Source: Chiloscyllium plagiosum
Lineage: Eukaryota
Direction: 5' to 3'
DNA: 33,270 nucleotides
Assembly: GCF_004010195.1 (NCBI RefSeq)
Contig: NW_025214417.1
Span: forward strand, 1 to 33,270
The notes under the pieces are model-generated. The model saw nothing but the letters and a program-made list of their open reading frames with translations, made no database searches and was not told the origin of the DNA. Numbering within the stretch: position 1 is the first letter of the stretch; every line of letters begins with the position of its first letter. Of the stretch, positions 2,798 through 33,000 are shown piece after piece. Both the position numbers and the translations under genes were made by a program.

Positions 2798-4185
2798 GGA
2801 GCGTGGACTGCGATGCTGGAGATTAGAGTCAAGATTCGAGTAGTGCTGTAAAAGCACAGCTGATCAGGCTGCTTTCGTGGAGCAGGAAAATCGACGTTTC
2901 CGGCAGGAGTCCATCGTCAGGAATAAGGCTGGAAGCCTCGGGTGTGGAGAGATAAATGGGAGAGTTTGGGGCTGGGGGCAAGGTAATTTAGAGTGTAATA
3001 TGTGGATGGTGGAAGAGGTAAAGGTGATAGGACGGAGAGGAGCGTGGAGCAGATAGGTGGGAAGAAAGATTGACAGTTGGGACAGACTTTGAGCATGGTG
3101 CTGAGCTGGACGTTTGGAACTAGGGTAGGGTGAAGGAGGGGAAATCGGTAAACTGGTGACATCCACGTTCATGCACTGGGGTTGACAGGTTACAAGGCCG
3201 AAGGTGAATGGCAGTGGAGGAGGCTCAGGACATGAAAGTCCTCGGCAGATGGAGGGTGAATTGAAATGTTCAGCCACACGACGGTGTGGTTGATTGGTGC
3301 GGATGTCCCAGAGATGTTCCCTGAAGTGCTCTGCGAGAAGACATCCAGTCTCCCTAATTTAAAGGAGACTACCTTGGGAGCAAAAGGCACCATAAGTGAC
3401 ATTTGTGGATGTGCCAGTGAAATTCTAATGGACGTGGAAGGCTCCTTTGTAGCCTTGCATGGATGTGAGGGAAAAGGTGTGGGCGCAGGTTTTGAAATTC
3501 CTGCGGTGGCAGGGGAAGGTGCCAGGGAGGGAGAGTGGGTTGTTGGGGGGCGGGGACACGAACGGAACTGTCTTTGTGGAAAGCAGGTAAGACTGTGGTG
3601 GGGAATATATCCCTCGCAGTGGGGTGTGTTTGTAGGTGGGGGAAATGTCGGCGGATGATGCGGTTTATGCAGAGGTTTGTGGGCTGGAAGGTATGGAGCA
3701 GCAGGGTCTGCCTTGTTGAGGTTGGAGGGGTGGGTTTTGAGGGTGGCGGTGCCCGACGTGGATGAGATGCGTTGGAGGGTATCTTCAACCACATGGAAGG
3801 GGAAATTACGGTCTTTAAAGAAGATTGACAACTGGTGTAGTCTGTGGTAGAAATGGTCATCCTGGGACCAGATACGCCAGAGACGGAGGAATTGGGAATA
3901 GGGGATAGCAATTTTGCAGGAGGTTTGGTGGGAGGAGATGTCGTCTGGATTGCTGTGCGAGTTGTTGGATTTGTAAAAATTGTCGGTTTTTAAATCAGTC
4001 GTCATTGATGGAGATGGAGAGGTCGAGGAAGGGCAGAGAAATGTCAGAGATGAACCATGTGAAGCTAAGTTCGGGTTGGAATGTGTCTGTCAAATTGATG
4101 AACTGCTCAACCTCTTCGTGGGAGCACGAGGTGGCGCCGATGCAGTCATCAAAGTAACAGAGGAAAAGGTGGGGAGTGATGCTGT
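2798..4185 (-). mobile_element. Neptune-like Penelope-like element, 5'-truncated (RT end, GIY-YIG region, 3' terminal repeat with decayed hammerhead)
   Basis: YFDD at 4145-4156 (minus), IPYSQFLRLWRIWSQ..FFKDRNFP, frameshifted endonuclease region, pyrimidine-rich 3' UTR, and terminal segment with ctgacga...gaaacgtc at 2893-2920. Confidence 0.85.
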
Positions 4186-4400
4186 TTTGAGGTCTCTGGG
4201 TTTATGCTCGTCGAATTTTAGGATGCCGAGCGTCTAATTGAAACATACAGAAGAATGAATGCCTGGTCTGTGTAGATATTGGGAAGATGCTTCCATTGTT
4301 AGTAGAGAAAGGGCCAAAGACGTAGCCTCAGAGGTAATGGGAGATCTTTCAGAACGGAGATTACGGAAACATCTTTGATCACAGAGTGGCAAATCCATGC
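4186..4400 (+). mobile_element. Decayed CR1 ORF2 C-terminal fragment
   Basis: Remnants of LGLYSLEFRR..LIETY..GKMFPL..FRTE.R; homologous to the CR1 at 21632-22075. Confidence 0.75.
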
Positions 4401-4407
4401 AAAGAGT

Positions 4408-4598
4408 AATATTTTCCTTCCATAAAGGACATGAATGAACCAGGTGAGTTTTTCCAGGCTATCGATTCATTGTCACAATCAGTTTCTTAATTCGAGATTT
4501 GAATTCAAGCGTCGCCATTTCCATGGCAGGCTTAAAACCCTGGTCACCAGAACATTATCTGCGTTTCTCGATTAAGAATTCAGCGATAACACTGGGCC
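4408..4598 (-). mobile_element. Second tRNA-derived shark SINE family (5' half), decayed
   Basis: Reverse complement reads ggcccagtgttatcgctg...taatgttctggtgaccagggttttaagcctgccatgg...ttgaattcaaatctcgaattaagaa...ctggttcattcatgtcctttatggaaggaaa, a tRNA-like head of a common elasmobranch SINE (recognised from memory). Confidence 0.6.
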
Positions 4599-4599
4599 C

Positions 4600-4900
4600 A
4601 ATCCTCCAGATTGTGACTGACTTGTAACGTATGCCATGCCCTAGTTTTTGCCTTTATGTTATCCATGACTTCCTTGTCAACACATGGATAATTTTTCATC
4701 GTTATTGAATTCTTATTCGGTTTTTCGTATCTCCCTATATACTTGCCAAATTTCATCATCTGTCCTGCCCCTGACGGTTTTATTTTCTTCTTCACAGTCC
4801 ACCAAGGCCAAATCCTTCCGTTGGTCTGTACAATTATCATTACCCAATACTAAAATTCTCAAATGTGACTCTGTCCTCACTCTTGCAGTCTGAATTTCAC
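4600..4900 (-). mobile_element. Decayed CR1 ORF2 fragment (linker between endonuclease and RT)
   Basis: Translations LALVDCEE..GRTDDEIWQVYREI and YPCVDKEVMDNIKAKTRAW..EDW resemble the CR1 VDW..W..F and PW..K..K..A..EDW segments. Confidence 0.6.
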
Positions 4901-5538
4901 ACTCCAGCATAGCTTTGTCAAGTTGATTAATTGAGTCAATATTCTTGTTCAAACCCTCACTATTTCCCCTTTGGAGGGACGGTGGCTGAAAATTAATCTT
5001 CACCAGTGGTTTCATTCTTTGCTTTTTATTTGCACTAAGACTGATTTCAAACATTTTGTATTGGCACAAGACTCTTTGAAAAAGTCTGACTTTTCACTCT
5101 CACAAACAAATGTTAATCGTTTTTGTCACTAACTACATTTCTCTTTAAATGTCATTCATTATAAAAATAGCAAGTGAATTTGATTGCAAACCATTTATTA
5201 TTTTACAGTGCATGTCAAGTTATTGTCATTTCTAAATTGTTAGCAAATAATTGAAGCTCACATATTTAGGGCCAGAAATTAAGTTGATTTATTATAGTTA
5301 AATGTTCTAGAATGCTAATTCTATTTGATTGTTCCATCGTTTGCTCACTCTCAATATGTAATCATTCGGATGCCAACCACTTTGCGAACGACAGTGCATT
5401 GATATATACATTTGAATGCTAACAGTCAATGTGCAAGTGTGATCACCGGGATAGTTAGGCATGCGCATTTTCCGGTTCAAAATAAAATGTGCATTCTTTA
5501 TTTTTGTGTCATATAATGTTGACAGATATTTATGCAAG

Positions 5539-6256
5539 GTTTGTGAAGGATTGTAGCACAGGTTGAGGTTTAGACCAAACACAGCCAGAAACCCTAACCA
5601 CCTTAGCATACATCAAAGATGTTTCGGAAATGACAGCCAGAATTCTAAGACCCTTAGGAATCCCAGTAGCATACAAACCCACCAACACTCTCAAAAAAAA
5701 CTAATAAACTTATAAGACTCAGCACAACCCATTGACAAAACCAACGTCATCTACAAAATTCCATGCAAGGACTGCCACAAACACTACATAGGACAAACAG
5801 GAAGAAAGTTAGCCACCAGGTTACACGAACACCAGTGAACCACAAAAACACACGACCCTCTCTCCCTCATAGCCCTACACACGGATGAAAAAAAACACCA
5901 TTTCGACTGGGACAACACATCTATCCTGGGAAAGGTTAAGCAAAGACATGCCAGAGAATTCCTAGAGGCCTGGCACTCCACCCACAACGCCACAAACAAA
6001 CACATGGATCCAGATGCTATCTATTAACCTCTCAGAAAATGAACAGGAAATGACATCACCACAAACCCCAGGAACCCCATACAGAATAATGAATGCCTGG
6101 TCTGTGTAGATATTGGGAAGATGCTTCCATTGTTAGTTGAGAAAGGGCCAAAGACGTAGCCTCAGAGGTAATGGGAGATCTTTCAGAACGGAGATTACGG
6201 AAACATATTCGATCACAGAGTGGCAAATCCAGTTCTGCGAGCAAACCTACACCCAT
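5539..6256 (+). mobile_element. Poseidon-like Penelope-like element, 3' portion with GIY-YIG endonuclease; probable short inverted terminal piece at 5539-5573
   Basis: YIKDVSEMTARILRPLGIPVAYKPTNTLK and NVIYKIPCKDCHKHYIGQTGRKLATRLHEHQ (GIY-YIG), then EFLEAWHS. The terminus gcgagcaaacctaca matches the reverse complement of 20150-20165. Confidence 0.88.
6078..6231 (+). repeat. 154-bp local direct duplication of 4244-4397
   Basis: Ungapped match at offset 1834 with 4 mismatches in 154 nt (counted by eye). Confidence 0.95.
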
Positions 6257-7011
6257 AGGTGTTTATATTTTTATCCATAAATGTAGAATCAACTTAATTA
6301 TTTTCAATTCTTGTTAAGTTGAATGATCATAATTCATATCTGGCTTTTTCCCAATACACAACATGGCAAACAACTGATTACTGTTCGGGTTAGTAAATTC
6401 ATCACTTGCAAACATGACCTGCATAAAAATGGATTACAAAAGGCCTGAATTCAGGCACAATTCTACTGAACTTCACAGCTGCCTGTGATACTGAATGATG
6501 CACTGGTCTGCTCCTGAATCTGCCCAGAGAGTTTCCAAACTGCATCAGGGCAGTCATTCAAACATTCCTTCACAACAAATCATTTGGAGTCCACCTTTGG
6601 AAGGGGTAAACTAGCCAACAGACTATCACCAGTCTGAATGTCGGAATAAATGCTGTTTAAGTTAGATACCAATGTCTGACCAGCAACCATGTCTTCCAAA
6701 TTCCTCTTCAGTCAGAGCCTGGCCTAGCGAGCAGTCGTACGGACAGGAGTTTCGGAATCACATCGCAGAAGTTACTTTATGGTGTNNNNNNNNNNNNNNN
6801 NNNNNNNNNNNNNNNNNNNNNNNNNNNNNGATTTTGTCTGGTGTAGATAAACACACAGGTTTATCTACCTATGGCACTGAGTTCAATGTAATAATGTCCT
6901 CCATAACTGGAAGAATCGGCCTAAAGCTCTTCCCCAGCTTCCTGACCTCACACACCTCACTCCCAAACATGTTCACCAATTGATAAGAACCCACAAATGG
7001 GGAGACACTTG

Positions 7012-8719: not shown

Positions 8720-8848
8720 TATAATGAAGGCTTATGTGTAAAACGCTAACAATCGTGCTTCTTGGATGCTGCCTGACTTGTCGTGCTTTTCCAGCGCCAT
8801 ACGTTTCGACTGGGAATCTTCAGCAACTGCAGTCCTCACTTTGTCCTT
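8720..8848 (+). mobile_element. Solo Neptune-like PLE 3' terminal segment (decayed), tail-to-tail with the next element
   Basis: ggatgctgcctgacttgtcgtgctttttccagcgcca...ctgcagtcctcactttgtcct aligns with 32910-33000 and is the inverted complement of 8860-8925. Confidence 0.8.
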
Positions 8849-9431
8849 TACTGAGGGGTGAGTCGGAGAGTGTGGTGCTGGAAAACCACAAATGGTCAGG
8901 CAGCATCTGAAGAACAGGGGAATCGATGTTTCAAGCACAAGCTCTTCAACAGGAATTAGACTTGTGGCCCAAAGGGGCTGAGAGATGAGGAGGAGGATTG
9001 TGGGGCTGGACAGAAGATAGCTGGAAATGCGAAAGATAGAGGACAGTGGGTGGAGGTAATCCTTTGCAGAGAAGGTTGGAGCATATATGTGAGAAGGAAG
9101 ATGGACAGGGAGGATAGTTCGTCGTTTGGGCAGTGCTGAGTTAGAAGGTTGGATTTCGGGCAATATGGGGGCGTGGATAAATGAGAAAGCTGATGAAATC
9201 CACATTGATCACATATTGTTGGAGAGTTTTAAGGTGGAAGATGACGCGTTCTTCCATCAGATGTGAGGTGGTTAGGGTTTGACCGTGAAGGAGGCCCAGG
9301 ACATGTGTCCTTGGCGGAGTGGGAGGGGCTTTAAAGTGTTTGATCTCAGGGTGGTGGGGTTATTTCATACGTGTGCCCCCGAGATGTTTTCTGGAATGTT
9401 CCATGTTTTGCTGTCCTGTCTACTGAATGAA

Positions 9432-9569
9432 AAGGTAAGAACAATGATTGTAGATGCTATAAGCCAGAATCTCGTAAAGAGTGGTGCTGGAAAAGCACAG
9501 CAGATCAGGGAGCGTCTGAGGAGCAGTAAAATCGACGTTTCGGGCAAAAGCCCTTCATCAGGAATACAG
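9432..9569 (-). mobile_element. Hammerhead-containing PLE mini-insertion with target-site duplication
   Basis: Same terminal family as 13485-13597 and 20838-20967; flanked by ctgaatgaaaaggt (9423-9436) and ctgaatgaagaggt (9570-9583). Confidence 0.85.
9534..9561 (-). ncRNA. Minimal type I hammerhead ribozyme, intact catalytic core
   Basis: Minus strand reads CUGAUGA-A-GGGC-UUUU-GCCC-GAAAC-GUC: conserved CUGANGA and GAAA boxes, a perfect 4-bp stem II, a palindromic ACGU mini-stem III and a GUC cleavage triplet. Stem I is short and imperfect. Confidence 0.85.
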
Positions 9570-9994
9570 CTGAATGAAGAGGTCACCACAACGAGTGGGA
9601 CGGGCACAGTAGATGGCACGTGCGAAAGTATAGGTGAATCTCTGTCAGATGTGAGACAGTCCCATTGGAGCCGTGGGCGGAACTGTGGGGGAGGGGTAAC
9701 ACGTCTTGCGGTTGAAGGCGGAGGTGCCGGGAGTGGAGGGTGTATTGGCGTGGGGGTGCTTCGAACTGACAAGGGGGTCAGGGAGGGAATGCAGATACGT
9801 GTGGGCAGGAAGGCATATATCTGATGGTATGGTCTGTTCCAAAGTGGCGAAAATGGTGGAGGGTGATGCGATGCATCCGCAGGTTGCTTGGATTGAAGGG
9901 GAGAATTGTGTGGGGGTGTTCCATTCTTGTTACGAGTGGAGATGTGTGAAGTGCAGGAGATGCGCTGGGAGCACCGTCGACGTTGTGAGCAGTT

Positions 9995-10970: not shown

Positions 10971-10974
10971 TTAA

Positions 10975-12815
10975 TAATATGTTGCTGGAAAAGCGCAGCA
11001 GGTCAGGCAGCATCAAAGGAACAGGAGAATCGACGTTTCGAGCATAAGCCCTGCTTCAGAAATGAGGAGGGGGTGTCAAGCAGGCTAAGATAAAAGGTAG
11101 GTAGGAGGGACTAGGGAGCCGGGCGTTTGGAATACGATCGGTGGAAGGAGGTTAAGGTGAGGGTGATCGGACGGAAAGGGGGTGGAGGCGGAGAGGTCGG
11201 GAAGAAGATTGCAGGTCAAGAAGGCGGTGCTGAGTCTGAGGGTTGGGACTGAGAAAAGGTGGGGGAGGAGAAATGAGAAAGCTGGAGAAATCTGCATTCA
11301 TCCCTTGTGGTTGGAGGGTTCCAACACGGAAGATGAGGCGCTCTTCTTCCAGGCGTCGTGTTGCCATGGTCTGGCGATGGAGNNNNNNNNNNNNNNNNNN
11401 NNNNNNNNNNNNNNNNNNNNNNNNNNNNNNNNNNNNNNNNNNNNNNNNNNNNNNNNNNNNNNNNNNNNNNNNNNNNNNNNNNNNNNNNNNNNNNNNNNNN
11501 NNNNNNNNNNNNNNNNNNNNNNNNNNNNNNNNNNNNNNNNNNNNNNNNNNNNNNNNNNNNNNNNNNNNNNNNNNNNNNNNNNNNNNNNNNNNNNNNNNNN
11601 NNNNNNNNNNNNNNNNNNNNNNNNNNNNNNNNNNNNNNNNNNNNNNNNNNNNNNNNNNNNNNNNNNNNNNNNNNNNNNNNNNNNNNNNNNNNNNNNNNNN
11701 NNNNNNNNNNNNNNNNNNNNNNNNNNNNNNNNNNNNNNNNNNNNNNNNNNNNNNNNNNNNNNNNNNNNNNNNNNNNNNNNNNNNNNNNNNNNNNNNNNNN
11801 NNNNNNNNNNNNNNNNNNNNNNNNNNNNNNNNNNNNNNNNNNNNNNNNNNNNNNNNNNNNNNNNNNNNNNNNNNNNNNNNNNNNNNNNNNNNNNNNNNNN
11901 NNNNNNNNNNNNNNNNNNNNNNNNNNNNNNNNNNNNNNNNNNNNNNNNNNNNNNNNNNNNTATCATGTGTGTGGAGGTGTAGGTGAATGTCCGACGGATT
12001 TGGAAGGATCCCTTGGAGCCTTGGAAGGAAGTGAGGGGGGAGGTGTGGGCGCAAGTTTTGCATTTCTTGTGGTTGCAGGGGAAGATGCCAGGAATGGAAG
12101 TTGGGATAATGGGGATTGTGGATCTGACGAGGGAGTCGTGGAGGGAATGTTTTTTCGGAACGCTGATAGGGGTGGGGAGGGAAATATATCCTTGGTGGTG
12201 GGGTCTCTTTGGAGGTGGCGGAAATGACAAAGGATGATACGATGTATCTGGTGGTTGGTGGGGTGGTAGATGAGGACCAGTGGGGTTCTGTCCTGGTGGC
12301 GATTGGAAGGGCGTGTTACAAGGGCGGTGGAGCGGAAAGTGGAGGAGATGCGGTGGAGAGCATCGTCAACCACGTCTGAGGGGAGATTTCGGTCTTTGAA
12401 TAAGGTGGCCATCTGGGTTGTTCGGTATTGGAATTGGTCCTCCTGGGAGCAGATGTGGCTATGGCGAAGGAATTGTGAATATCGGATGGTGTTTTACAGG
12501 GGGCAGGGTGGGAGGAGGTGTTATCCAGGTAACTGTGGAAGTCAGTTTTTTTTTATAGTAAACGTCCGTGTTGAGTCGGCCGTCCGAGATAGAAATGGAG
12601 AGGGAGGAGTCTGAGACGGCCCAGGTAAATTTGAGGTCGGGGTGGAAGGTGTTAGTAAAGTGGATGAACTGTTCAACCTCCTCGTGGGAGCACGAGGTTT
12701 CGCTGATACAGTCATCGATATAGCCGAGGAAAAGGTGGGGGGTCGTGCTAGTTTAGCTGCGGAAGACGGACTGTTCCACATATCCAATGAAGTGTCAGGC
12801 ATAGCTGGGGCCCCG
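10975..12815 (-). mobile_element. Neptune-like PLE, 5'-truncated (RT C-terminal half, GIY-YIG region partly in the gap, 3' terminus with hammerhead)
   Basis: YIDD at 12711-12722, FKDRNLPSDVVDDALHRISS, FPCNHKKCKTCAH, RRLEEERLIFRVGTLQPQGMN; HHR motif at 11032-11059. Confidence 0.9.
11032..11059 (-). ncRNA. Hammerhead ribozyme motif with one core substitution
   Basis: CUGAAGC-A-GGGC-UUAU-GCUC-GAAAC-GUC; the conserved A9 is replaced by C, and stem II is kept with one G-U pair. Confidence 0.65.
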
Positions 12816-14450
12816 TTAGCCTTCTTCTTTCATATGAAAACAGGCAGAAGTCTCTCAGCCGTTCCTCATAAGACTTTTCCTCCAGGCCAGGCAACATCCT
12901 GTTAAATCTCTTCTGCACCTTCTCCAATGCTTTCCATATCCTTCATGAAATGTGGCGACCAGAACTGTACACAATATTCCAAGTGCGGCCGCACTAGCGT
13001 TGTGTATATTTCCGGCATGATATTGCGACTGCAGAATTCAACACCTCTACCAATGAAACCGAACACACTGTATGCCTTCTTAACAGCACTATCAACCTGG
13101 GTGGCAACTTTCAGGGATCTATGTACATGGAGTCCAAGATCCCTCTGCATATTCTATACTATCAAGAATCTTTCCGTAAACTCAGTATCCCACCTTCCTG
13201 TTCTTCTTCCCAACGAGAGTCACCTCACATTTCGCTACATTGAACTCCATTTGCCACATCTCAGCCCAATTCTACAGTTTATCGAAGTCCCCCTGCAACC
13301 TGTACCATTCTTCCAAACTGTCTACTATTCCACCGACTTTAGTGTCATCTGCAAATTTTCTAATCCATCCACCTATGCCTACGTCAAAGTCATTTATAAA
13401 AATGACAAACTGCAGTGGTCCCAAAACAGAAACTTGTGGCACAATACTAGTAACCGGACTCCAGGTTGAATATGTTCCATCAACGAGGTAAAAACAATGA
13501 CTGCAGATGCTGGAAACCAGATTCTGGATTAGTGGTGCTGGAAGAGCACAGCAGTTCAGGCAGCATCCGAGGAGCTTCGAAATCGACGTTTCGGGCATGA
13601 AGGGCTGTTCTCCTCTATTCTATTTGCCCGAAACGTCGATTTCGAAGTTCCTCGGATGCTGCCTGAACTGCTGTGCTCTTCCAGCACCACTNNNNNNNNN
13701 NNNNNNNNNNNNNNNNNNNNNNNNNNNNNNNNNNNNNNNNNNNNNNNNNNNNNNNNNNNNNNNNNNNNNNNNNNNNNNNNNNNNNNNNNNNNNNNNNNNN
13801 NNNNNNNNNNNNNNNNNNNNNNNNNNNNNNNNNNNNNNNNNNNNNNNNNNNNNNNNNNNNNNNNNNNNNNNTGATTACAAATCCTATCTCTTATAATCCT
13901 TTACAAAACCTTTCCTACAAAGGAAGTAGGGCTCGCTGGTCTATAATTACCTCGGTCATTTCTACTGCCCTTCTTGAACAAGGGCACAACATTTGTAATC
14001 CTCCAGTCCTCTGGTACTGAACCAGTAGACAATGACGACTCAAGTATCAAAGCCAACAGCTCTGCAAACTCCTCCCTCGCTTCCCAGAGAATCCTCGTAT
14101 ACATCCCATCCGGCCCAGGCGACTTACCTACTTTCATTTCATCTAGTATTTATAACACCTCTTTGTAACTAACCTCGATCCTTTCTAGTCTAATAACTCC
14201 ATCTCATTCTTCCCCTCTACAATATTCTCCATTTCCTGAGTGAACACTGATGAGAAAAGTACACTTAGCACCTCTCCGATCTCCACACTCAACTTCCCAC
14301 TTCTGTCTTTGACTGGCCCTATTCCTACCTCGTCAACCTTTTATTCCTCACATACCAATAGAAAGCGTTAGAGTTCTCCTCTATTCTATTTGCTACAGAC
14401 TACTTGTGTCCTCTCTTTGCTCTTCTTACCTCTCTCTTCAAATCCTTCCT
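12816..14450 (-). mobile_element. CR1 LINE ORF2 (RT), interrupted by a PLE inverted-repeat insertion and a gap
   Basis: VPQVSVLGPLQFVIFINDFD..KFADDTKVGG, LVRPHLEYCVQFWSPH, KSPGPDGMYTRILWE and NYRPASPTSFVGKVL. Confidence 0.92.
13485..13691. repeat. Head-to-head inverted pair of PLE terminal repeats (67-bp arms, 27-bp spacer)
   Basis: 13531-13597 is the reverse complement of 13625-13691 with one mismatch; the right arm runs into the gap. Confidence 0.92.
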
Positions 14451-14466
14451 CGGTGATATAGGTAGT

Positions 14467-14787
14467 GGGCGGCACGGTGGCACAGTGGTTGGCACTGCTG
14501 CCTCACAGAGTCAGAGACTCAGGTTCAATTCCCGCCTCAGGCGACTGACTGTGTGGAGTTTGCACGTTCTCCCCGTGTCTGCGTGGATTTCCTCCGGGTG
14601 CTCCGGTTTCCACCCACAGTCCAAAGATGTGCAGGTCAGGTGAATTGGCCATGCTAAATTGCCCGTAGTGTTAGGTAAGGGGTAAATGTAGGGGTATGGG
14701 TGGGTTGCGTTTCGGGGGGTCGGTGTGGACTTGTTGGGCCGAAGGGCCTGTTTCCACACTGTAAAGTAATCTAATCTAATCTAATCT
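14467..14787 (+). mobile_element. HE1-type (V-SINE) SINE, full-length young copy
   Basis: Pol III A box tggcacagtggtt (14478) and B box ggttcaattccc (14522), V-domain-like core tgtgtggagtttgcacgttctccccgtgtctgcgtgg..ttcctccgggtgctccggtttcc, LINE-like tail and (taatc)4. Confidence 0.92.
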
Positions 14788-18033: not shown

Positions 18034-18594
18034 CTGTGAAAACGGCATACATACAAATTATACATCAACCTGGAGCCAACGTTACCAGTTTGATTGATAA
18101 CACAATGAGGTGTGTCACTGCATTCAGAGATTTATTGAAATAAATGGATCTGAAATATCAAACAGGAAGGCCTGAAGTACTCACAAAAATATAAGATGAA
18201 ACGCAAGAAATCATCCCTCACTAAACAGACACAGACACATCAATAAGAACAGAATGGTTTCTGGAACACTCCTACAGACTCGATCATTCGAGGGCAGACA
18301 CAGGTCACTTCATCCCACTTCTAATACGGAAGGTGAGAACGTTGCTGTTCTGAAGTATTCTATCCCAGTTTATTGAAGGGAAACGGCGTTTGGAAATTTC
18401 TGGCTTTTCGTCTTAATTGTGGTCAATCGTTTGCCGTGAAGAAATGTAGATGCAGGGAAAACATATTCATTCCTTTACTTGACAGAGGGAATATCAAAAC
18501 TGTGTTTCCTTCTCACTTGAAGGGGATCTCTTCCCTCAGGATCTTATCTTTTGTTAAATTAACCCATTTCGGAGGTTCAGAAATCTGAGCTGCC

Positions 18595-19860
18595 GGGAGT
18601 AAAATGTTCCAGAGAATGTCGGGTTTGGAACATTCCAAAGATTGTCATGCATAAAATGGTCCGGGGAATGTTGACTCCAGAATGCACCAGAGAATGCCGG
18701 GTGTAGAACATTGCAGGGAATGTCGGTTATAGAATATTCTGGGCAATGTCAATTCCAGAATGTTTCAGTGAATACCCAGTCCAGAATATTCCGGGGACTG
18801 AATGCCCTGGAGAATGGCAGGTATAAACTGTTCAACGGAATGTCCGGTCAAGAACGTTGCAGGGAATGTCGGATCGAGCAATGTCCGGGGAATGTCTGAG
18901 ATTGAATGTTTTGGAGAATGTTGGGGATAGAACGTTTCAGAAGAAGTCTACAAGGTATAGGATGCTCTGGGAATGTCAGTTAAGGAATCCTCCTGAGAAT
19001 GTTGGGGATGAAATTATCCGGGAAATGCTGCCTATAGAATGTTCTGGGAAATGTTGGGGATGGAATTGTACTGAAAATGTCATTTATAGGATGTTCTAGA
19101 GAATGTCGGGTCTAGAATATTCTGGGGAATGTCTGCTGCAGAATGTTCTGCAGAACGTTGTATATGGCATGTTCTGGAGTATGTCGGTGCTGAATGTTCT
19201 AAAGGATGTCTGTTACAGAATGTTCCGGGGAATGTCAGTATATGCTAGGAATATCAGTTATAGACTGTTATTGGAAGTGTCGGATGTAGAACGTTCTGGA
19301 GAATGACAGTTTCAGAATATTCCAGAGAAGGTTCGGTCTAGAACGTTCCGGGGAGTGTCAGTTATTGATCATTGCAGAGAATGTCGGATATGGAATGTTC
19401 AGAGGAATTCCAGTTACAAATGTTTCAAGGAATGTCAAGTGTAGAAAATTCCAGAGACTGCAGTTTTTAAAATGCGCCGAAGAATATCGGGTATGCAATG
19501 ATCTTGAGAATGTCAGCTGAAGAATGTTTCAGAATGTCATTTGTGGAATGTTCTGGAGAATGTTGGGTATACAACGTTTCAGGCAATGCCAGTTACAGAG
19601 TGTTCTGGAGAAATTCGGGAATAGAACAATCCATGATTTTTGGGTATACAACGTTTTCGGGAAGTCAGGTGGAAAATTTTCCAGAAAATGCTGGGTATAG
19701 AATGTTCCAAGGAATGTTGGTTACAGAACGTTGCAGAGAATGTCGGGTGCACAAAGTTCTGGAGACTGTTGTTTGTCGAATGTTCTGGGTATATTTGTTT
19801 ATACAATGTTCCGAACAATGTCGGGTGCAGAGGGTCCCAGTGAGTGTAGGGTATAGAATA
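18595..19860 (+). repeat. Degenerate 26-bp minisatellite (12+14 subunits), roughly 45-50 units
   Basis: Approximate consensus gaatgttctgga-gaatgtcgggtata recurs throughout and produces the low-complexity ECSGEC-type ORFs. Confidence 0.92.
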
Positions 19861-20139
19861 TGATAGATCTATAAATATCCATATCTCAGAAGTTCTTGTG
19901 CCCATTAATTTGGCGAGATCCGCTCAGCCGCAAGGCGGGAATCTGTCTTCAAGCTTAACTCAGCTGATAGTTTTAAACAAAATACAGTAAGATTCAGCCA
20001 ATACCTTCATTATTTCATGCAACATCCTCTTGTATGGTCAGACACGAGCTATCCCTTATTTGGATAATTACCCAATCTTTGTTCTCAATTTTGTGTAACA
20101 CTCCCAAATGTCTTGGACATTCAGTTCCCAATATTGGTC

Positions 20140-20830
20140 ACACTCTGGATGTAGGTTTGCTTGCTGAGCTGGCAAGTTCATTTTCATATGTTTCATCACC
20201 ACACTAAGTAACGTAATCAGTGAGTCTCCGAATGAAGTACTGTTGGTGTAGCCTGCTTCGTATTTATATGTTTGGGTTTCCTTGGGTTGCTGGTGTCATT
20301 TCCTGTGGTGTCATCATTTCCTATAGAGATGTGATTTACTGTAGTTCTTTTCTCAGGAGCTAGTAAATGCGATTCAAGTCAATGTGTTCGTCCATGGAGT
20401 TCCGGTTGGAATGCCATGCTGATATGAATTCTCGTGCATGTCTCTGTTGGCTTGTCCAAGGATGGATATGTTGTCCCAGTCGAAATAGTGTCCTTCCTCA
20501 TCCGTATGTAAGGATATTAGCGACAGTGGGTCATGACTTTTTGTGGCCAATAAATGTTCACTATGCTGGTGGCTCGTTTTCTTCCCGTTTGTCCAATGCG
20601 GTGTTTGTTACAGTTCTTACTAGGTACTTTGCAAATGGTATTAGTTTAACTTGTTGTCTGTATAGGGTCTTTCAAGTTCATTAGCGTCTGTTTTAGTGTG
20701 TTGTTGGGGTTGTGGACGAACATGATGCCAAGGGGTCTGAGTCATCTGGCAGTCATTTCCGAAATGTTTTTGATGGAGGGGAGAGTGGCTAGGGTTTCTG
20801 GAGGAGTTTTTCTCTTTTCGTTTGATTTCT
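20140..20830 (-). mobile_element. Poseidon-like PLE 3' portion with decayed hammerhead
   Basis: Reverse-complement homologue of 5575-6077 (ETLATLP..ISEMTA; NTICKVPSKNCNKHRIGQTGRK; AWHS). HHR remnant CUGAUUA-CGUUAC..GUGAU-GAAAC-AUA at 20187-20220. Confidence 0.85.
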
Positions 20831-20837
20831 TCTAAAT

Positions 20838-21100
20838 GAGGTAAAAACAATGATATCAGATGCTGGGAACCAGATTCTGGATTAGAGTGGTGCTTGTAAA
20901 GCACAGCAGTTCAGGCAGCATCCGACGAGCAGTAAAATCAACGTTTTGGGCAAAAGCACTTCATTAGAAATAAAACGCAGATTTGCTACAGGTTGGAGAG
21001 GTATATGAGAGGAGGGTGGCAGTGGGGAGAAAGTAGCACAGAGTACAATGGGTGGATGGGGATGGGGATGAAGGTGATATCTTAGAGAGGAGGATGGAGC
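20838..21100 (-). mobile_element. Neptune-like PLE 3' terminus with decayed hammerhead
   Basis: Aligns to 13485-13597; HHR remnant CUAAUGA-A-GUGC-UUUU-GCCC-AAAAC-GUU at 20940-20967. Confidence 0.85.
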
Positions 21101-21457
21101 GAATACATTGTATCGGCGTTCTTCTTCCTCTTTTTGCAGTTCTGATGTACTGCAGTGTGTTGTGGCCCTTTTGAACTGTGTCTTGATGCAACTTCTTTTG
21201 TGTGTGTTGTGGTTGCAGACTACTGCGACTACTAGGACTCATAACAGCACACAAACCAACAGCCACTCTCAGACAACAACTCACCAGGACGAAGGACCCG
21301 ATACCCAGCAAGCACAAAACCAATGTAGTGTACAAAATCCAGAGGCATGGCACTCATCCATAGATTCAATCAATAAACGCATCGACCTGGACCCAATATA
21401 CTGGCCCCTGCAGCGGACAGCTGGAACTGACAACCGGAAGCGGCAGATACAAATCAC
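21101..21457. mobile_element. Rearranged Poseidon-like PLE fragments (minus 21101-21220; plus 21221-21457 with an internal deletion)
   Basis: Minus: THKRSCIKTQFKRATTHCSTSELQKEEEE. Plus: LLGLITAHKPTATLRQQLTRTKDPIP..TNVVYKI joined directly to EAWHSSIDSINKRIDLDPIY. Confidence 0.8.
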
Positions 21458-22140
21458 TGGCTGATCATCCTCAATCAGTATCCTGTTCCTGCCTTATCTC
21501 CATAACCCTTGATTCCACTATCCTTTGAGAGCTCTGTCCAACTCTTTATTAAACGAATCCAAAGATTGGGCCTCCACTGCTTTCTGGGGCAGAGCATTCC
21601 ACACACCCACCACTCTCTGGGTGAAGAAGTTTCACTTCATCTCTGTCCTAAATGGCCTACCCCTCATTTCTAAGCTGTGTCCTCTTGTTCGGGACTCACT
21701 CATCAGCGGAAACATGTTTCCTGCCTCCAGAGTGTCATATCCTTTAATAATCTTATACGTCTCAATCAGATCCCCTCTCTGTCTTCTAAACTCAAGGATA
21801 TACAAGCCCAGTCGCTCCAATCTTTCAACATAAGATAGTTCCGCCATTCCAGGAGTTGACCTCATGAAGCTACGCTGCACTCCCTCAATAGCCAGAATAT
21901 CTTTCCTCAAATTTAGAGACCAGAACTGCACACAATATTCTAGTTGCGATCTCACCAGGGCCCTATACTGCTGCAGAACAATCTCTTTGCTTCTATACTC
22001 AATCCCTCTTATTATGAAGGCCGTCATGCTATTCGCTTTCTTCACTACCTGCTGTACCTGCATGCTTGCCATCATTGACTGGTGTACAAGAATACCCAGA
22101 TCTATTTGTACTGCCCCTTTACCTAACTTGACACCATTTC
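21458..22140 (-). mobile_element. CR1 LINE 3' portion
   Basis: ORF 21632-22075: LVRSQLEYCVQFWS..LEFRRQRGDLIETYKIIKG..SRTRGHSL..FRTEMK. Confidence 0.92.
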
Positions 22141-22479: not shown

Positions 22480-25430
22480 AGGTCGGCTAGAAGAACACAG
22501 CAAGCCAGGCAGCATCAGAAGGTGGAGAAGTCGACGTTTTGGGTTAACTCTTCTTCAGCACTGTGGGTGGGTGTAAATGGAGGTGCAGATAAAGGAGGTG
22601 GCGGGGTCAGGGTCTTAAATTGGACAAAAAATAAGACAGGTAGAGGGTACCACATGGTTGGTCAATGGGGGAGGAAATGAAGCCTGCAGTGACTGGGAGG
22701 ATTGCAGGGAGTGGGAGGGGCTGGGAGCAAGTCGGGTGATGGGATGGGAGGTTATTTGAAATTGAAGAACTTGATTTTGAATCCTAAGGGCTGCATACTG
22801 CCCAGGCGAAACATAAGGTGTTGTTCGTCCAATTTTCGTTATGGCTGCAGAAGAGGCCAAGGATCGTTGAGTCGGGAAGGGAGTGAGAAAGGGAATTAAA
22901 CGTGTGGTGGCTGGGATCTTCGTCCGCCCCTGCAAGCCCAGCTGTGATGCTTGGCGAATTGTTCCCTCAGTTTACATTTGATCTCCCGGATGGAGAGAAG
23001 ACCACATCGAGAGCACCTGATGCAATTAACTTGTTCAAAAGGCATGTCAAACTCTGTTTCACATGGATGGACTGCTTGGAGTTCTGAATGGAAGTGAGGA
23101 GTTGGTGTACGGGCAGGTTTTGTGTCTTGTCCGGTTGCTGGCGAAAGTCTTTGGGGGTTCGGGAGGATTCATGTGCAGAGGTTTGATAACCAATGACTGG
23201 GGAAGGGAATGATCCTTGTGGAAGGCAGAGAGGAGTGGGGAGGGGAATATGTTCTTGTTGGTGGGGTCTGATGGAAGTTGGCAAAAGGTTTTAAGGATGA
23301 TGTCCTGGATGCGGTGATTGATGGATTTGTAGGTGAAGACAAGGGGTCTCTATGTTTATTGTGCTCAGAAAGTGGTGTTTAGGGCAGTGGAATGGGGAAT
23401 CGAGTTGATGCAGGGAGGGCTATTAAATTGCAGAGGTAGAAAAAGCATTTTTTTAAAATAAGTGGACATCTGGATTGATCGCAAGTAGAATGTTTCCTTG
23501 TCTGAGCAAATACAGCAGAGGCGGAGGATCTGGGAGAATGAGATCGAGTTCTTCCAGGATACTGGGTGGCAGAAGTTGTAATCCAAGTATTTAATGGGGG
23601 TCTGTAGGTTTGTAGTGAGCGTCCATTTGGAGATAGTCACCGAAGGTGAAAATGGAGTGGTCAAGAAAGTGGAGGGAGGTGTCCGAGATGGAACAAAAGA
23701 ATTTAACGACAAGGTGGAAGTGGTGGATGAAGACGATGAACTGCTGCAGTTCTATCTGGGTGCAGGTTGCTGCGCCAGTGCAATCATTGATGTAACCGCA
23801 GAAGAGCTTTGGCACAGTGCCTCTGTGTGTACTGAAGAGGGGCTGTTTGAAATACCCAACAAAGAGACATGCATAGCTACGTCCCAATCGAGTGCACATG
23901 GCCACCCCGTTGGATTTGGAGAAAATGGGAGGAATTGAAGGAATATTTACTGAGGGTGAGGAATAATTGGGTGGACGGAAGAGGGTATGGCTGGAGGGAG
24001 ACTGGATGGTTCCTTTTGGAGAGGAAGAAAGTGAGTGCCTGGAGGCCATCCTTGGTAGTTTTTAACATGTATAAGGACTGCACGTCCATCATGAAGATAG
24101 TGTGCTAGGGGACGGGGAACTGGAATTCTGAAGAGATGGGGATTGTGGTGGGTGTCAAGAATTCAGGTGGGAAGTGACTGAACCAAGGCGGTGAGGACAG
24201 AATCGAGACAGGACGAGATGATTTCGAAGGGACTAGACAATGCTGAGACGATTGATCAGCCAGGGCAGTTGGGCATTTGGATCTTAGGGAGCAGGTAGAA
24301 CCAGGCAGTGCGAGGGTGAGGCACAATGAGCTTGGAGGCGGTGGAAGGGAGATCAGCATCTGCAATAAGGGCACAAACAGGGCACGCAGTTTTGGCCTGA
24401 TTGGTCAGTGTGGGGTCGTGGTCAAAGGGGAGGTAGAATGTGTTATTGGAGAGTTAGCGTTCAGCCTCTGCGAAATAGAGAAACCTTCTCCAGACTACCA
24501 CCTACGTTAGCATTTGTGATGGTTAACCGGGGTAATTGTGGAGCGAGTAGAGTGCTGCACGTTTGGAGGAGATGCATGTTGAGTGGATTCGGGTGGTGGA
24601 GAAAGTGAGGCTGATGTCACGTTGGACGTCTGCAAGGTAGAGGTCTGGGACAGGTACAAGGCACTTCAGGTGGTGATCAGGTGGAGAAAGAAGGTTGGAA
24701 GCGGGAGATGGGATCCTCCGAGGGAGATTCGGAGGTTTTGGCAAAGAAGAAGACATGGAAACAGAGGGCGAGAAAGAAGCGCTCCACGTCGAGACTGGTC
24801 CTGAATTCGTAGAGGTGGAGGTAGGGGGTGCGAATGTGAGCTTTTTCTTGAGGACAGAATGATTGCATATGGTAAGTGACTGTTGTATCTGCTGTAGTTA
24901 GGGGAGTTGGTGTGGATAGAAAAAGAGTATTGAGAGTGCGATGGGTTGCCGAGTAGCAATGTTGCTGGGTGGATGACGTGAAGAGGGAGAAGTGGAGAGG
25001 TAAAGTGTATTGTGGGGGTGGAATGGGTGAGGAGGGAGAGCTGGTGTGCTGGCTGGCTGTAGGCAGGCTGTAGGACCCAGGCATGACCCTGAGAAATGTA
25101 GACCGAGAAGTACTTGTACAGTGGGCAATGCCAGAGTTGGAGGTGGAAGCTGGAGGAACCTCGAATCTGGTTGGAGTGCTGTTGTCAGCAGAATCAGGGG
25201 CAGTGTTGTTGGAGAGATCCGGAGCTGAGACAGAGGTTTTGGGTGAGTATTTGGGGGTCCTCGTAAGTGGTTTGATGGCCTGGGTAACAAACCGGAAGGA
25301 GCGTCTGACCCGGAACTAGCTTTGGACTGGGCAGACCCAGTGCTGGATGGAGTCTCCACGTGGATAATAGGCGCGGCACCAAAGTGGGGCGGGTCTGGAG
25401 GCGGCCGGAAGCAGGGCACAAATTTCGAAC
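22480..25430 (-). mobile_element. Long, possibly near full-length Neptune-like PLE, heavily frameshifted
   Basis: RT motifs MDVQSLY, GVAMCTRLGRSYACLFVGY, YIND (23783-23794), FLD, YKPTD, SISFSQILRLCCICS. N-terminal DVERFF..FF region. HHR remnant CUGAAGA-AGAGUUAACCC-AAAAC-GUC at 22533-22558. The 5' boundary is uncertain. Confidence 0.85.
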
Positions 25431-27629: not shown

Positions 27630-30485
27630 CGTCCTTTGGTAATGTGGCAACCCGAACTGTACACAATATTTGAAAAGTGGTCGAACCAAAGTTTTTCCAA
27701 CTCAAACATGACCAGCCAACTCTTGTACTCAATGCCCGATCCGATGAAAGACATCATGCCGTATGCCATCTTAACCACTTTGTAGAATTGAATACACAGA
27801 TTCATCTGTACATCAATATTCCCAGCATTTTCCAATTTACTGTGTCGTTCAGTCTTGAACTGGATCTTCCAAAATGGATCACCTTCACTTTCCCGGATTC
27901 AACTCTATCTGCCATTTGTCTGCCCAACTCTTCAATCTATTTATATTCTACTGTATTCTATGACAATCCCTTTCAATGTGCATTACTCCTCAATCTGCAA
28001 ATTCATAATCAGACCACCGTTACCTTCCTCAAAAACATTTATGTGTATCACAAACAACAGTGTTATCAGCACGGATCCCTGTAGCACACCATTATCTCCA
28101 TTTTGAGATACTACCATTCATTATTATTCTCTGTCTCCTGTTGCCCAGCAAGTTCTCTATCTATCCAGCTAGTATATTTGGGATCCTATGCGACTTCATC
28201 ATCTCCATCAGCATACCATGGGGAATTTATCCAATGCCTTACAAACGTTCATGTATATTACATGCACAGTCCTTTCCTCACCAATCAACTTTCTCACTTC
28301 CTCAAATAATTATATTAAGTTGGTAAGAGATTATCTTCCCTACACAAAACCATGTCGCCTATCTCTGGTAAGCTTATTTTCTTCCAAATGGGAATAGATC
28401 GTTGGTCTCAGTATATTCTCCACCAGCTTTCCTACTGTTGACGTCAGGATCCCTGGATTATCCCTGCTATCCTTCTTACACAGCGGACAACATTAGCAAT
28501 TTTCCAGTCCTTCGGGACAATGTTCAAGGATGCTGCAATAATATCTGTTTTCAAGGTCCCAGCAATTTCCTATCTCACTTCCCTCAGTAACCTGTCATCG
28601 ATACTACCCGGATCTGGGGAATTGTGCACCTTAATGCCTTTGCAAATGCAAACCAATTCCTCCATCCATATGCTAACTTGACGTAGAGTAATCAACCAGC
28701 TACTCAGGACGGCACGATAGCACAGTGGTTAGTTCTGCTCCCTCGCAGCACTCGAGATCCAGATTCAATTCCCGCCTCTGGCGACTGAGTAGAGTTTGTG
28801 CATCGTCTGTGTGGGTTTTCTCCCACAGGCCAAAGATGTGCAGGTCTGGTGAATTGGCCATGCTAAATTGCCCGGAGTGTCAGGTGAAGGGATGAATGTA
28901 TGGGTGGGTTGTGCTTCAGCGGGTAGGTGTGGACTTGTTGAGCCGAAGGGCCTGCTTCCACACTGTAAGTAATCTAACCTCAACATCCATCACGTCCCTC
29001 TCCTCGGTGAATAACAATGCCAATAATCATTTTCTCTGACTTCACGCATAGTTTTCCTCCTTTTTCCTTGAGTGGGACAACCCTTTCTCTAGATACCCTC
29101 TTGCTTCTTGTATAGGAATAAAAAATACTTCGGGATTTCCCGTAAACTTGTTTGCTAGAGATATGTTACGACCAATTTCAACCCTCTTAATTCCACGTTT
29201 CAGGTTAATCCTACATTCCCAAAATTCTTTCAAAGCTTCACCTGTCTTGTGCCGCCTAGACTGTATGTACGCTTCCTTTTTCCACTTAGCTTGTCTCACA
29301 ATTTAACCTGTTATCCATAGGTTTTAAATGGAAAACAAAATCTCTTGAACTCTGATCCACCTCTCTTTAAAAGTCTCCGACATATCAAATGTGGATATGC
29401 TTTCAAACCGATGAACCCAGTCAACATTCACCAGCTCCTTCTGAATGTGGTGGAGTTGGCCTTCCTTCCACTAAGCAATCTTATTTTATGACCACTCTCA
29501 TCTTTTTCCATGGTTATTCCAAAACTTGGGAATTTTGATCACTTTTCCCAAAGTAAGACACTAGTGAAATGTTAATCACCAAGCCAGGCACATTCAATTC
29601 CACCAGATCCAGTATGTATCATTCCCGAGTTGTACAATTAACATACTGCTCGAGAAAACCCTCCTGGATACCCCTTACAAATTCTACTCCATCTACACTT
29701 CTAACACGAAGTGAATCCCAGTCACTGTTGGGCAAGGTAAAATCTTCCGTCACCATCTCCCTGTTGCTGCCACATCTTTCCATAATCTGTTTACATATTT
29801 GGACCTCTATTTCCGCTCGCTGTTGGGAGGCCTGGAGTATAACCCGAACATTGTTACCGCACACTTCCTATTTCTCAGCTCTGCGCTTTTTGCGTTATTG
29901 TCTGAGCCGACCACATGCTCTCTTGCAGCACAGCGTGATATACTCTTTAATTAGTAATGCAAAAACTCCTCCCCTTTAACTCCATCACTATCCCACCTGA
30001 GCCATCTATATCTGACGATATTTTGTTGCCAATCATGCCCTTCCCTCAACCAAGTTTCAGTGATAGGAATATCATCATACTCTCAAGTACTAATCCAAGT
30101 CCTAATTCATATGCCTTACCTACGACATTTCTTGCATTGACACAAATACACCTCAGGCCAACTTTGCGTTCCTCATCTCCTCCCTGTCTTGCATTCCACT
30201 TAGTCACTCTGACTTCATTAAGTTCCATAAAGGCTTTAGTTACTAACTCCATACTGTCCACGAATCTCCTCATTTGAGTCCCATAAACAACGCCACTTTA
30301 GTTTAAACCGTCCCCAACAGCATTTGCAAAACCACCCAAAGGACATTGGGTCTCGTCCAGCCCAGGTGCAGACCGTCCAATTTGCAATTGTCGCTCCTCC
30401 CACAGAACTGGTCCCAATGATGCAAAACCTGAACTACTCCCTGCTGCACTATCCCTCAAGCCACGCATTTAACCTTCCTATTCTT
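27630..30485 (-). mobile_element. Long CR1 LINE: ORF1 (SGNH esterase-like) C-terminus, ORF2 APE endonuclease and RT, decayed; interrupted by a SINE
   Basis: ORF2 start LRCICVNARNVVGKAYEL, EDFTLPNSDWD..GFLEQYV..TRE, AYGMMSFIGSGIEYKS. ORF1 end remnants HWDQF..KLDGLHLGW at about 30295-30485. Confidence 0.9.
28707..28977 (+). mobile_element. HE1-type SINE with internal deletions, inserted in CR1
   Basis: Aligns to 14467-14787 (head, aaagatgtgcaggtc..gtgaattggccatgctaaattgccc, tail ccacactgtaagtaatctaa). Confidence 0.9.
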
Positions 30486-30759: not shown

Positions 30760-30848
30760 TGAAGGGGAGAGATACAGAGCGAGAGAGAGAGGGAGGGAGA
30801 GAGAGGGAGAGAGAGAAAAATAAATGAGAGAGTGCCAGAGAGAGATGG
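30760..30848 (+). repeat. (GA)n-rich low-complexity tract
   Basis: gagagagagagggagggagagagagggagagagaga... Confidence 0.8.
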
Positions 30849-30914
30849 ACAATGATAGTGCAGACTTGCAACATTGACAACACATCAACTGGAATTCGTT
30901 TCCTGCACATTTCA

Positions 30915-31185
30915 CTGGTACATTCCGACCCTGGGAAAGTGAGTTAGAAACTCCATACTGTCCCACCATTTCCTCCTCAATATCTCTTTGCATCTCTCTC
31001 GATCAACCTTTCCAACTGTCGCCACATTTCAGGCAAAGTAGTTTCTGGCACATTCCGACCCTGGGAAAGTGAGTTAGAAAATGATCTCAGGTTGCTTTCA
31101 TCCCACCATTTCCTCCTCAATATCTCTTTGCATCTCTCTCGATCAACCTTTCCAACTGTCGCCACATTTCAGGCAAAGTAGTTTC
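30915..31185 (+). repeat. Tandem duplication of the form A-x-B-A-y-B
   Basis: A: 30920-30950 equals 31050-31080 (31 nt). B: 30961-31045 equals 31101-31185 (85 nt). The spacers of 10 and 20 nt are unrelated. Confidence 0.95.
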
Positions 31186-31199
31186 AATTTTCCAAATGA

Positions 31200-31595
31200 C
31201 CTCTTCTGAACTGCATTATTCTTTCTTTCTATGATTCTGTCTCGTCTCTCATCCTTTCTTTTATTTACTTCTGTCCCGACCGTTCTCACAATTCTATCGG
31301 TCTTTTTCTCACTTCATTCCTTTCTCTCTTTGTTTCTGTCTTTCCGATCTGTCTCCATTTTTACCTCTCAATCTGTAACTCTGCCTTACTCTGATTTCAC
31401 CTTCTATCTCTTCTCACTCATTCGCTGCTTTTCTTGCATCTCTTTCTACCACTGTCTCTACATGTGTTCCAGTATTCTTTTCTCTTTTTGATCTCCTTCT
31501 AATCGTTTGCGTCATTACCATTCTGTCCACTTCCTTCCCTCACTATCTTTGCCTTGCTTTATGTTATCTCTCTGCATCTCTCTCTCACCCTGCCT
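31200..31595 (+). repeat. CT-rich low-complexity tract (decayed microsatellite)
   Basis: Strong pyrimidine skew with many tctc/tttc runs. Confidence 0.7.
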
Positions 31596-32840
31596 GATCT
31601 ATTTGTCCAGAGTGTTAAACAGTATTGATTCTTCGTTATTTTGTGGAATAAATGCTTCCAAATGGTTCTACCTTCTCGTTTCTCACCATCAAATTTTTAC
31701 TTAAGCTGTCACAGAATATGATACAGTCTGAATGGTTAAATATCCGACCACCACCAGATTATATCCTAAATATTGTAAAATAATGTGCGTTGTTTTTTCC
31801 AGATAATACCTGAAAAAAAGCTTCCCAGAGTCAAACATTGTGTCCATTATCGTTGGGAAAATGCAGACTTTTTTTTCAAGCGATGTGACTGATTCTCGGT
31901 GAATCTTGCATTTGTAAAGCTACCCAGTTAACCCGGTCTTGTTCACTAGTTTGACTGTACTACAGCCTCCATCCTTTTTGTGGCATTCACTACATTTCTG
32001 GACGCTACTGTCTGAGCTCGATGTGAACACAGCGACGAGAGACATAGCGCAAAAGAGCCTTAAAGGTATGGGTTCCGTGCAATAAATGCAGTTCTGAAGA
32101 TCTTAAGATTTGGCACTTATCTCCTTGCACACGAAAAGGCTTTGTGGATCCAACAACACGATGGCGTAGAACAGAGGTGAAAAAGACAGTCTGTTTTCCG
32201 CTCGTAAATGAGATAGTACCATGGGGTCTGGAATCAGGCACAGATTTCCAATGACTTGTAAAGCAATATACATGAGGTGAAAAAGTTGTTTATTCCTAAA
32301 AGCACAGACTTTTGTTCTGGAATTGCTGTCTGGAATTAATGCAGAGAGAGGTTGTAATAAAGTTTCTAAAAGAGGCATTTAATGGAGATTTGAACAGAAT
32401 GGATATGCAAGGTGCTAGCGAAATCCAAGGAGATTGCCATTCAGTTATGAATCTCCTTTCAACAGCCAATTCAAAAAGTTTTAATCAAACGCTCTCCTGC
32501 GGCACACCCAGCATTTTTGTGAGTTTGTGGATCATAGACAAAATGTACAACAAGGCTTTGGGCTAAAAGCAGAACGTGAGAGCAACTACCCTTCACAGCA
32601 TTGTGGTATTTGCCTGAGTGTGGCTTGAAGGATCAATGAAGTCAATGGAGACCATGGGACCCAATGGTTGCAATTGTATTTGTCACAGAGCAAAGCAGTA
32701 GTCACTCTGTAGCGATGATAATTTCAGTCCATGATGTACACAGAATGTTGCCCTCTGCAGAGTTACATTCTTATCCTTCCTCAATGACTTTGAACGCTTG
32801 ATGTGTAAAATGTCACACTTGCTTAAGAAAGGGTAAATCG

Positions 32841-33000
32841 AGCAATATCCGAGGAGCTGGAGAATTGACGTTTCAGGGAAAAGCCCTTGTGCCTGAAACG
32901 TCGATTCCCCAGCTCCTTTGATTATGCCTGAGCTGCTGTGGTATTCCAGCACCACACTCTCGACTCTAATCTCCACAGTCTGCAGTCTTCACTTTCTCCT
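32841..33000. mobile_element. Head-to-head inverted PLE terminal fragments (short minus arm, complete plus tail)
   Basis: ggagctggagaattgacgtttcagg (32853-32877) is inverted relative to cctgaaacgtcgattccccagctcc (32892-32916). The plus arm continues to ctgcagtcttcactttctcct. Confidence 0.85.

Follow-up and report, generated by a model that had tools for sequence, protein, structure and literature searches.

Mostly decayed minimal hammerhead motifs in Neptune-like and Poseidon-like Penelope-like elements of a shark contig

Minimal type I hammerhead ribozymes (min-HHRs) of Penelope-like elements (PLEs) have been described from fish Neptune, Poseidon and Xena elements, from the coelacanth (~4,000) and from Xenopus (~9,000) (PMC4209133), and what PLE hammerheads do is described as unclear (PMC8557442). 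Type I motifs also populate non-LTR retrozymes (LTR, long terminal repeat), with 126,247 in the retrozymes of the axolotl (PMC7229834); retrozymes have been found in one chondrichthyan genome (10.64898/2026.07.22.740005), and a PLE expansion is reported in the whale shark (10.1101/443036). Sharks are absent from the main-text and searchable supplement portions of PMC4209133 that were covered, and we found no shark-specific description of PLE hammerheads among the papers listed in a literature search that had Repbase, Dfam and the supplements of the chondrichthyan preprint outside its scope. Here we analysed a 33,270-nt stretch of Chiloscyllium plagiosum contig NW_025214417.1 (positions 1 to 33,270, hereafter the window), in which a first-pass annotation had noticed hammerhead motifs recurring at the 3′ ends of several PLE families. 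This kind of PLE hammerhead is already known (PMC4209133), and the window adds shark Neptune-like and Poseidon-like members. The copies, 11 of 12 of them damaged or truncated, very probably come from the terminal repeats of these elements and are likely carried passively, as reverse transcriptase (RT) would begin copying uncut RNA at a point ~50-100 nt downstream of the motif.

Hammerhead motifs and the elements that carry them

All ten sites named in the first-pass annotation carry a hammerhead motif or a remnant of one, and the window holds 12 hammerhead arms in total, ten in one Neptune-like group, one more distant Neptune-like and one Poseidon-like. A single arm (9534-9561) is intact, the other 11 being damaged or truncated, and there are no intact tandem pairs. 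Among the seven full-length sites, scored position by position, the CUGANGA and GAAA boxes with the NUH triplet are both intact in two (9534 and 2893), and one or two core-box changes are found in each of the other five (8925, 11032, 20187, 20940 and 22533). All seven have the extra nucleotide after A9, and the palindromic positions 15.1-16.1 read ACGU in five and ACAU in two, the monomer being without helix III. Stem I comprises two pairs, a U-U mismatch and one further pair in the main group, including the intact motif, whose stem II has all four pairs; copies E and G (Table 1) have three stem I pairs, the inner one broken in G.

The hammerhead observation was in this way partly confirmed. 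Besides the sites themselves, the distance of at most ~100 nt from the 3′ end holds, the cleavage position lying ~30-101 nt from that end where measurable and ~40 nt from it at 20187. What did not stand in full were the strands, the single-copy status of some sites and the association with open reading frames (ORFs). The site at 8722-8747 lies on the plus strand, and those at 13584-13637 and 32867-32902 each consist of two head-to-head arms forming an inverted pair. Placement in the sense of a PLE ORF was borne out in five copies, at 2893, 8925, 11032, 20187 and 22533, where the motif lies downstream of same-strand ORF pieces (tblastn), and failed at 9534 (a nested insert without an ORF of its own), at 20940 (3′ untranslated region (UTR) only) and at the five partial arms.

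A Pfam scan of 22 frames of the window returned no PLE domain, and PLE identity was taken from homologues, for which protein searches gave matches in bamboo, epaulette, zebra and whale sharks, pointing to a shark and likely a carpet shark as the source. Neptune-clade PLEs have an RT followed by a C-terminal GIY-YIG domain with a CX2-5CxxC linker (PMC8557442); the homologue alignment shows this order of RT, linker and C-terminal GIY-YIG, and linker and GIY-YIG are also seen in the frames of copy D. In the Penelope/Poseidon clade, GIY-YIG follows the RT with no zinc-finger linker between them. The protein P0016 (PF00078, PF26215), without such a linker, matches copy E at 41-58% identity, and both P0016 and P0013 match copy E on either side of copy F (tblastn). 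These traits agree with the labels Neptune-like and Poseidon-like, which are sequence-based assignments. Copy A matches P0001-P0004 at 45-80% identity in pieces (tblastn), with its tail recovered by nhmmer, and copies A and D reach 75-80% identity to Neptune proteins, whereas copy G shows only 32-55% to P0002 and P0003, so that G is a separate lineage; its tail match is weak (E 1e-9). The 3′ UTRs of copies A, B, D and F are related yet divergent just upstream of the motif. Given the published traits and the same-strand Neptune-type and Poseidon-type ORF pieces upstream, the motifs had been rightly identified as PLE minimal type I hammerheads. That several lineages each keep a variant of their own applies in part: there is a Neptune-like group in which loop II has at least two variants and the 3′ UTRs differ, the lineage at 22533 and the Poseidon-like one at 20187, but ten of the 12 arms fall in one group, and the Poseidon-like and 22533 variants are one decayed copy each.

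Descriptor counts by themselves are only modestly above chance. Compared with 30 dinucleotide shuffles, a strict hammerhead descriptor gave two matches in the window (shuffle mean 0.3, maximum 2), the same descriptor with at least four stem II pairs one match (mean 0.03, maximum 1) and a relaxed descriptor seven (mean 1.6, maximum 4), four of the seven being named sites and three (8604, 10156 and 24455) lying away from PLE ends. Since the descriptor is weak and Rfam covariance models gave no hammerhead match in the window at E values up to 10, the case rests on homology and position. A MIR533 match at 32839-32930 scored far below its gathering cut-off and was rejected, as it reflects the inverted pair of arms K and L. 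An nhmmer profile built from eight arms recovered 11 Neptune-type arms in the window, with the next match at E 0.42, and among them were three arms outside its training set (H, E 2e-15; G, E 1e-9; L, E 8e-9). Neither scanning for the exact motif nor a protein scan of metagenome contigs yielded anything usable. The silence of Rfam, shuffles that reach the strict count and the lack of a covariation signal in the window could be read as chance matches unrelated to hammerheads, a reading that is extremely unlikely and already largely refuted: the same architecture and position recur in Neptune-like and Poseidon-like copies with otherwise unrelated flanks, the layout is nearly identical to published PLE rows, and the positions that vary are the tolerated ones.

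Two further Poseidon-like pieces lie in the window. A plus-strand element at ~5537-6260 has, in the expected place of its hammerhead, the second copy (6078-6231) of a 154-nt segment that also occurs at 4244-4397 with 97.4% identity, a duplication that may represent local templated replacement or an assembly error; the 5′ end of this element (5537-5575) resembles an inverted tail by eye. At 21240-21460 (+), an inverted Poseidon-like fragment with an internal deletion in its GIY-YIG part adjoins the 5′ end of copy E (tblastn).

Table 1. PLE copies, short units and min-HHR motifs in the window.
Feature	Position	Strand	Description
Copy A	2804..4195	-	5′-truncated Neptune-like PLE: RT end, CxxC linker, GIY-YIG, 3′ UTR, HHR, tail
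Copy B	8860..9975	-	5′-truncated Neptune-like PLE, interrupted by insert C
Insert C	9436..9569	-	HHR-plus-tail unit of 134 nt inside the GIY-YIG region of copy B; its start lies 8 nt before C3
Copy D	10974..12812	-	5′-truncated Neptune-like PLE; assembly gap inside; short tail (tblastn, nhmmer)
Copy E	20148..21240	-	5′-truncated Poseidon-like PLE, split by copy F; limits approximate
Copy F	20839..21100	-	short Neptune-like 3′ end with UTR, HHR and tail, lying within copy E
Copy G	22486..24904	-	long, decayed, more distant Neptune-like PLE; may reach ~25550
Arm H	8721..8846	+	heavily decayed HHR-plus-tail unit, tail-to-tail with copy B; nhmmer E 2e-15
Arms I (-) and J (+)	13486..13691	both	head-to-head, joined inside HHR; no whole CUGANGA; runs into N gap
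Arms L (-) and K (+)	32838..32999	both	head-to-head, joined in stem/loop II; neither with CUGANGA
min-HHR A	2893..2920	-	both core boxes intact; 2 of 4 stem II pairs broken
min-HHR B	8925..8952	-	A6 and G16.2 changed; stem II 4 of 4 pairs including G-U
min-HHR C	9534..9561	-	only intact motif: CUGAUGA, extra A, GGGC-UUUU-GCCC, GAAAC-GUC
min-HHR D	11032..11059	-	A9 to C; UUAU loop; GCUC strand
min-HHR E	20187..20220	-	G8 and G16.2 changed; stem II 6 pairs (three G-U); stem I 3 pairs
min-HHR F	20940..20967	-	G5 and G12 changed; one stem II mismatch
min-HHR G	22533..22558	-	G12 changed; stem II shorter and damaged; stem I letters differ

Variants, abundance and probable passive carriage

The stretch 9400-9600 was compared at ≥80% likeness with three contig sets and a single RNA run, which together make up 4 of the 24 runs listed. 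Matching contigs numbered 39,506 (X4, organism A), 41,131 (X9, organism B) and 50,694 (X20, organism C), with depth peaking on the motif, and contigs lying only partly on the stretch numbered 5,622, 5,905 and 6,262 in the three organisms. In all three, the majority letters match the hammerhead core at all listed core positions. The CpG-site transitions listed in the 28-nt motif (C17, G16.2, C15.2, G12 and C11.1) account for 5-22% of depth, the change of loop II position 3 from UUUU to UUAU for 14-27% and the change of U7 to A for 5-11%. The hammerhead core leaves position 7 and loop II free. Both are N in the published descriptor. As to the stem II variants that had been assigned to families, the UUAU loop is a real variant in the contigs of three organisms, whereas GCUC, absent among the 40 of 46 variants listed, is not supported as a family trait and looks private to copy D. 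A change at stem I position 1.3 that completes four pairs, the 5′ strand being assumed unchanged, makes up 12.6% of X20 depth and 0.2% in X4 and X9.

Summed contig depth is no copy number. As a rough bracket, the peak depth divided by the depth of long single contigs gave 0.3-1.7 million, a figure that falls to 11,000-56,000 once the 31 overlapping words are divided out as well; the density of 11 arms in 31,477 called bases would correspond to ~1.3 million in a 3.85-Gb genome, a figure from one window with the genome size from PMC7677710. At least 10^4 motif copies per genome is a safe figure, and anything above 10^5 a tentative one. The very large ribozyme repertoire proposed for this genome therefore stands as a repertoire of motif copies (at least ~10^4) and not of active ribozymes, with 11 of 12 arms damaged or truncated and the lone intact monomer predicted to bury its core.

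By analogy with PAc, the Poseidon element of the anole Anolis carolinensis (PMC11167929), the motif would sit at the junction of the pseudo-long terminal repeat (pLTR) and the ORF of the next unit, RT would start internally downstream of the HHR with uncleaved RNA as its main template, and cleavage would need the protein of the element. In a source element, cutting after GUC would require either that two copies of the motif pair by way of the ACGU palindrome or that protein assists; on its own, a copy is predicted to lock its core in an inactive hairpin, and single copies, once dispersed, would then likely decay neutrally, mainly at CpG sites. Because RT would start downstream of the motif on uncut RNA, nearly every insertion, however 5′-truncated, would receive one motif, which would account for the abundance. 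All 12 arms extend across the cleavage position, suggesting that they were likely copied from uncut RNA and ruling out that HHR cleavage defines the insertion ends. A profile search found no tail-only pieces in the window at E below 0.4, and HHR mutants of PAc still insert (PMC11167929).

In RNA run X21, 2,282 of 12,955,460 records match 9400-9600, with comparable depth in the two directions and a level profile over the cleavage site, a pattern that fits passive transcription of copies in both orientations. Folding of monomer C predicted that U4-G8 pairs with C15.2-G1.1 with a probability of 0.5-1.0, stem I forming with 0.007-0.02 and stem II with 0.9-1.0; the intermolecular ACGU helix was computed at about -3 kcal/mol. 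A genome with a large repertoire of working ribozymes, in which intact scattered copies cleave transcripts of the host or the element by themselves, in trans or paired with nearby copies, would be in keeping with at least ~10^4 copies of one group (by rough calculation), with the motif region in polyA RNA reads, with the X20 change that completes a four-pair stem I and with the motifs of copies B and C lying 609 nt apart on the same strand. It is nonetheless very unlikely, because only one arm is intact and B is mutated in both boxes, the predicted fold is self-sequestering and X21 has no read-end pile (a weak test); in published assays PLE min-HHR monomers do not cut and dimers cut weakly (PMC4209133), and one of nine Xenopus retrozyme dimers was cleaved (10.64898/2026.07.22.740005). 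On this analysis, most of the dispersed hammerhead copies are likely inert passengers and not working ribozymes.

Several points weigh against the derivation of the motifs from terminal repeats and their passive carriage. No copy in the window has a 5′ pLTR and no full-length element with two pLTRs is present, so that both the position of the motif with respect to the ORF start and the site at which RT begins are taken from an element of a different clade and species. The stem I U-U mismatch, found in all five full Neptune-1 copies, makes this stem weaker than in most published rows, and with it the source elements may themselves cut poorly. Stem covariation in the 11 arms of the window is not above shuffles (245 of 500 reach the score), a result that is uninformative because the arms are decayed and truncated. 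The variants above have an 8% floor, come from contigs ≥80% alike only and are given, for 40 of 46, without linkage between positions. In X21, no pile of read starts or ends at the cleavage site appears among the places listed, the library being polyA single-cell, read at ~2 in 100 and poorly suited to 5′-OH ends. Finally, energy models do not describe the hammerhead core.

Short units, inverted pairs and neighbouring sequence

Insert C is flanked by 13-nt direct repeats with one mismatch (9423-9435 and 9570-9582), matched as well by 14 of 3000 random window pairs, and its excision lowers the gaps in the alignment of copy B to P0003 from 55 to 6. Among 11 boundaries at which target-site duplications were sought, that of insert C was the only convincing one, and a self-comparison of the window revealed no tandem array in which successive units each hold a complete HHR. 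The starts of C, H, I, J, K and L all fall within ~40 nt around the motif, which amounts to six of 11 arms, or four of nine events when each inverted pair is counted once; the binomial chance of four in nine is 0.0006-0.03 at per-event rates of 0.05-0.15, a post hoc calculation with assumed rates.

One account of these starts, which we put forward tentatively and consider rather unlikely, is that the HHR region itself sets the end of the complementary DNA, RT from the tail either stalling or switching template at the motif hairpin or running off the 5′ end of an RNA that begins just upstream. Shark Neptune elements would in that case mass-produce 130-150-nt mini-insertions that begin with the ribozyme, together with fold-backs, at 10^4 to 10^6 per genome, and these would likely serve as raw material for retrozymes. 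Motif-proximal starts may have two routes, transcription starting just upstream of the HHR or pausing at the hairpin; in Drosophila Penelope, the sequence immediately upstream of the HHR holds the start site and an intron (PMC2377424; PMC4209133).

We consider it improbable that the short HHR-plus-tail units are instead a distinct non-autonomous family, resembling short interspersed nuclear elements (SINEs) or retrozyme monomers and propagated in this form, their 5′ end fixed at the motif. The start of insert C 8 nt before C3 with a target-site-like duplication, the similar starts of H, I, J, K and L in or beside the motif, and one inverted joint (9509 to 9563) seen repeatedly in each of the three organisms (6, 5 and 6 contigs) would suit such a family, but the six short arms have different starts and tails, as independent truncations would give, the window has no tandem array of the unit, and 5′-truncated single copies and opposite-strand pairs are known for PLEs (PMC4209133, PMC8557442, PMC3846280). 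Also known are pLTRs that are inverted or solo, palindromes at junctions and target duplications of 8-10 bp (PMC3846280). Loose ends and inverted joints in the contig sets gather at 9561-9566, a position biased toward that edge by a reference without family sequence past 9569. Stem II as a genome-wide inversion hot spot was unsupported, the opposite-strand rows among the 15 of 25 joints listed pairing 9561-9566 with 9509-9526.

Within loop II, arm J holds nearby LINE-like (long interspersed nuclear element-like) sequence from ~770 nt away, seen as a 21-nt exact match between 13607-13627 and 14373-14393, which may reflect a template switch or an assembly error beside the N gap. Elsewhere in the window, a rhodopsin-family G-protein-coupled receptor frame at 17363-17999 (-) (7tm_1, E 1e-13) runs into an assembly gap, and a degenerate tandem array of short units was seen by eye just upstream of it, at 18590-19870. 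Three related copies of ~300 nt at 1151-1434, 14467-14781 and 28707-28980 are likely a SINE, and 30915-31185 is a two-copy tandem duplication of ~130-140 nt with 89% identity.

Comparison with described systems

Taken as a whole, the interpretation first offered for this DNA is partly supported, retaining the PLE min-HHR identity, the several lineages and the abundance and losing the GCUC family variant and the functional repertoire, of which the window gives no demonstration. As the kind is already known, the finding matters chiefly as a resource: where a genome carries a single min-HHR family in tens of thousands of copies or more, statistics alone can test both core selection in the source elements and the clustering of 5′ truncations and inversions at the motif.

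The closest relatives are the min-HHRs of Cervera and De la Pena 2014 (PMC4209133), with which the shark motifs share CUGANGA with the extra nucleotide, the G10.1-C11.1 pair closing stem II, GAAAC-GUC, the ACGU palindrome and the lack of helix III. In Fig. S3 of that work, the coral Neptune row shares the four-pair GGGC stem II and GAAAC-GUC with the Neptune-type motif here, and the lamprey Poseidon row shares the long stem II with the E motif. There too, min-HHRs are mostly single dispersed copies tied to truncated PLEs, with several families per genome and opposite-strand pairs. The shark main group differs in its stem I of two pairs, U-U and one pair, and in a higher copy estimate, which includes decayed copies; the earlier figures count matches to a descriptor.

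PAc (Frangieh et al. 2024, PMC11167929) resembles the shark copies in an HHR shortly upstream of the 3′ end of the insertion, a variable tail length and the lack of RNA-seq reads ending at the cleavage site, and uncut RNA is the template there as we infer it to be here. It differs in having been tested in vitro and in an ORF that starts at stem II, the shark elements being known from sequence and mostly Neptune-like. Non-LTR retrozymes (PMC7229834; 10.64898/2026.07.22.740005) likewise carry a type I HHR in short PLE-related units and leave dispersed monomers; by contrast with the window, where neither a tandem array nor a canonical helix III occurs, they form tandem repeats of 170-400 nt with mostly canonical HHRs and circular RNAs.

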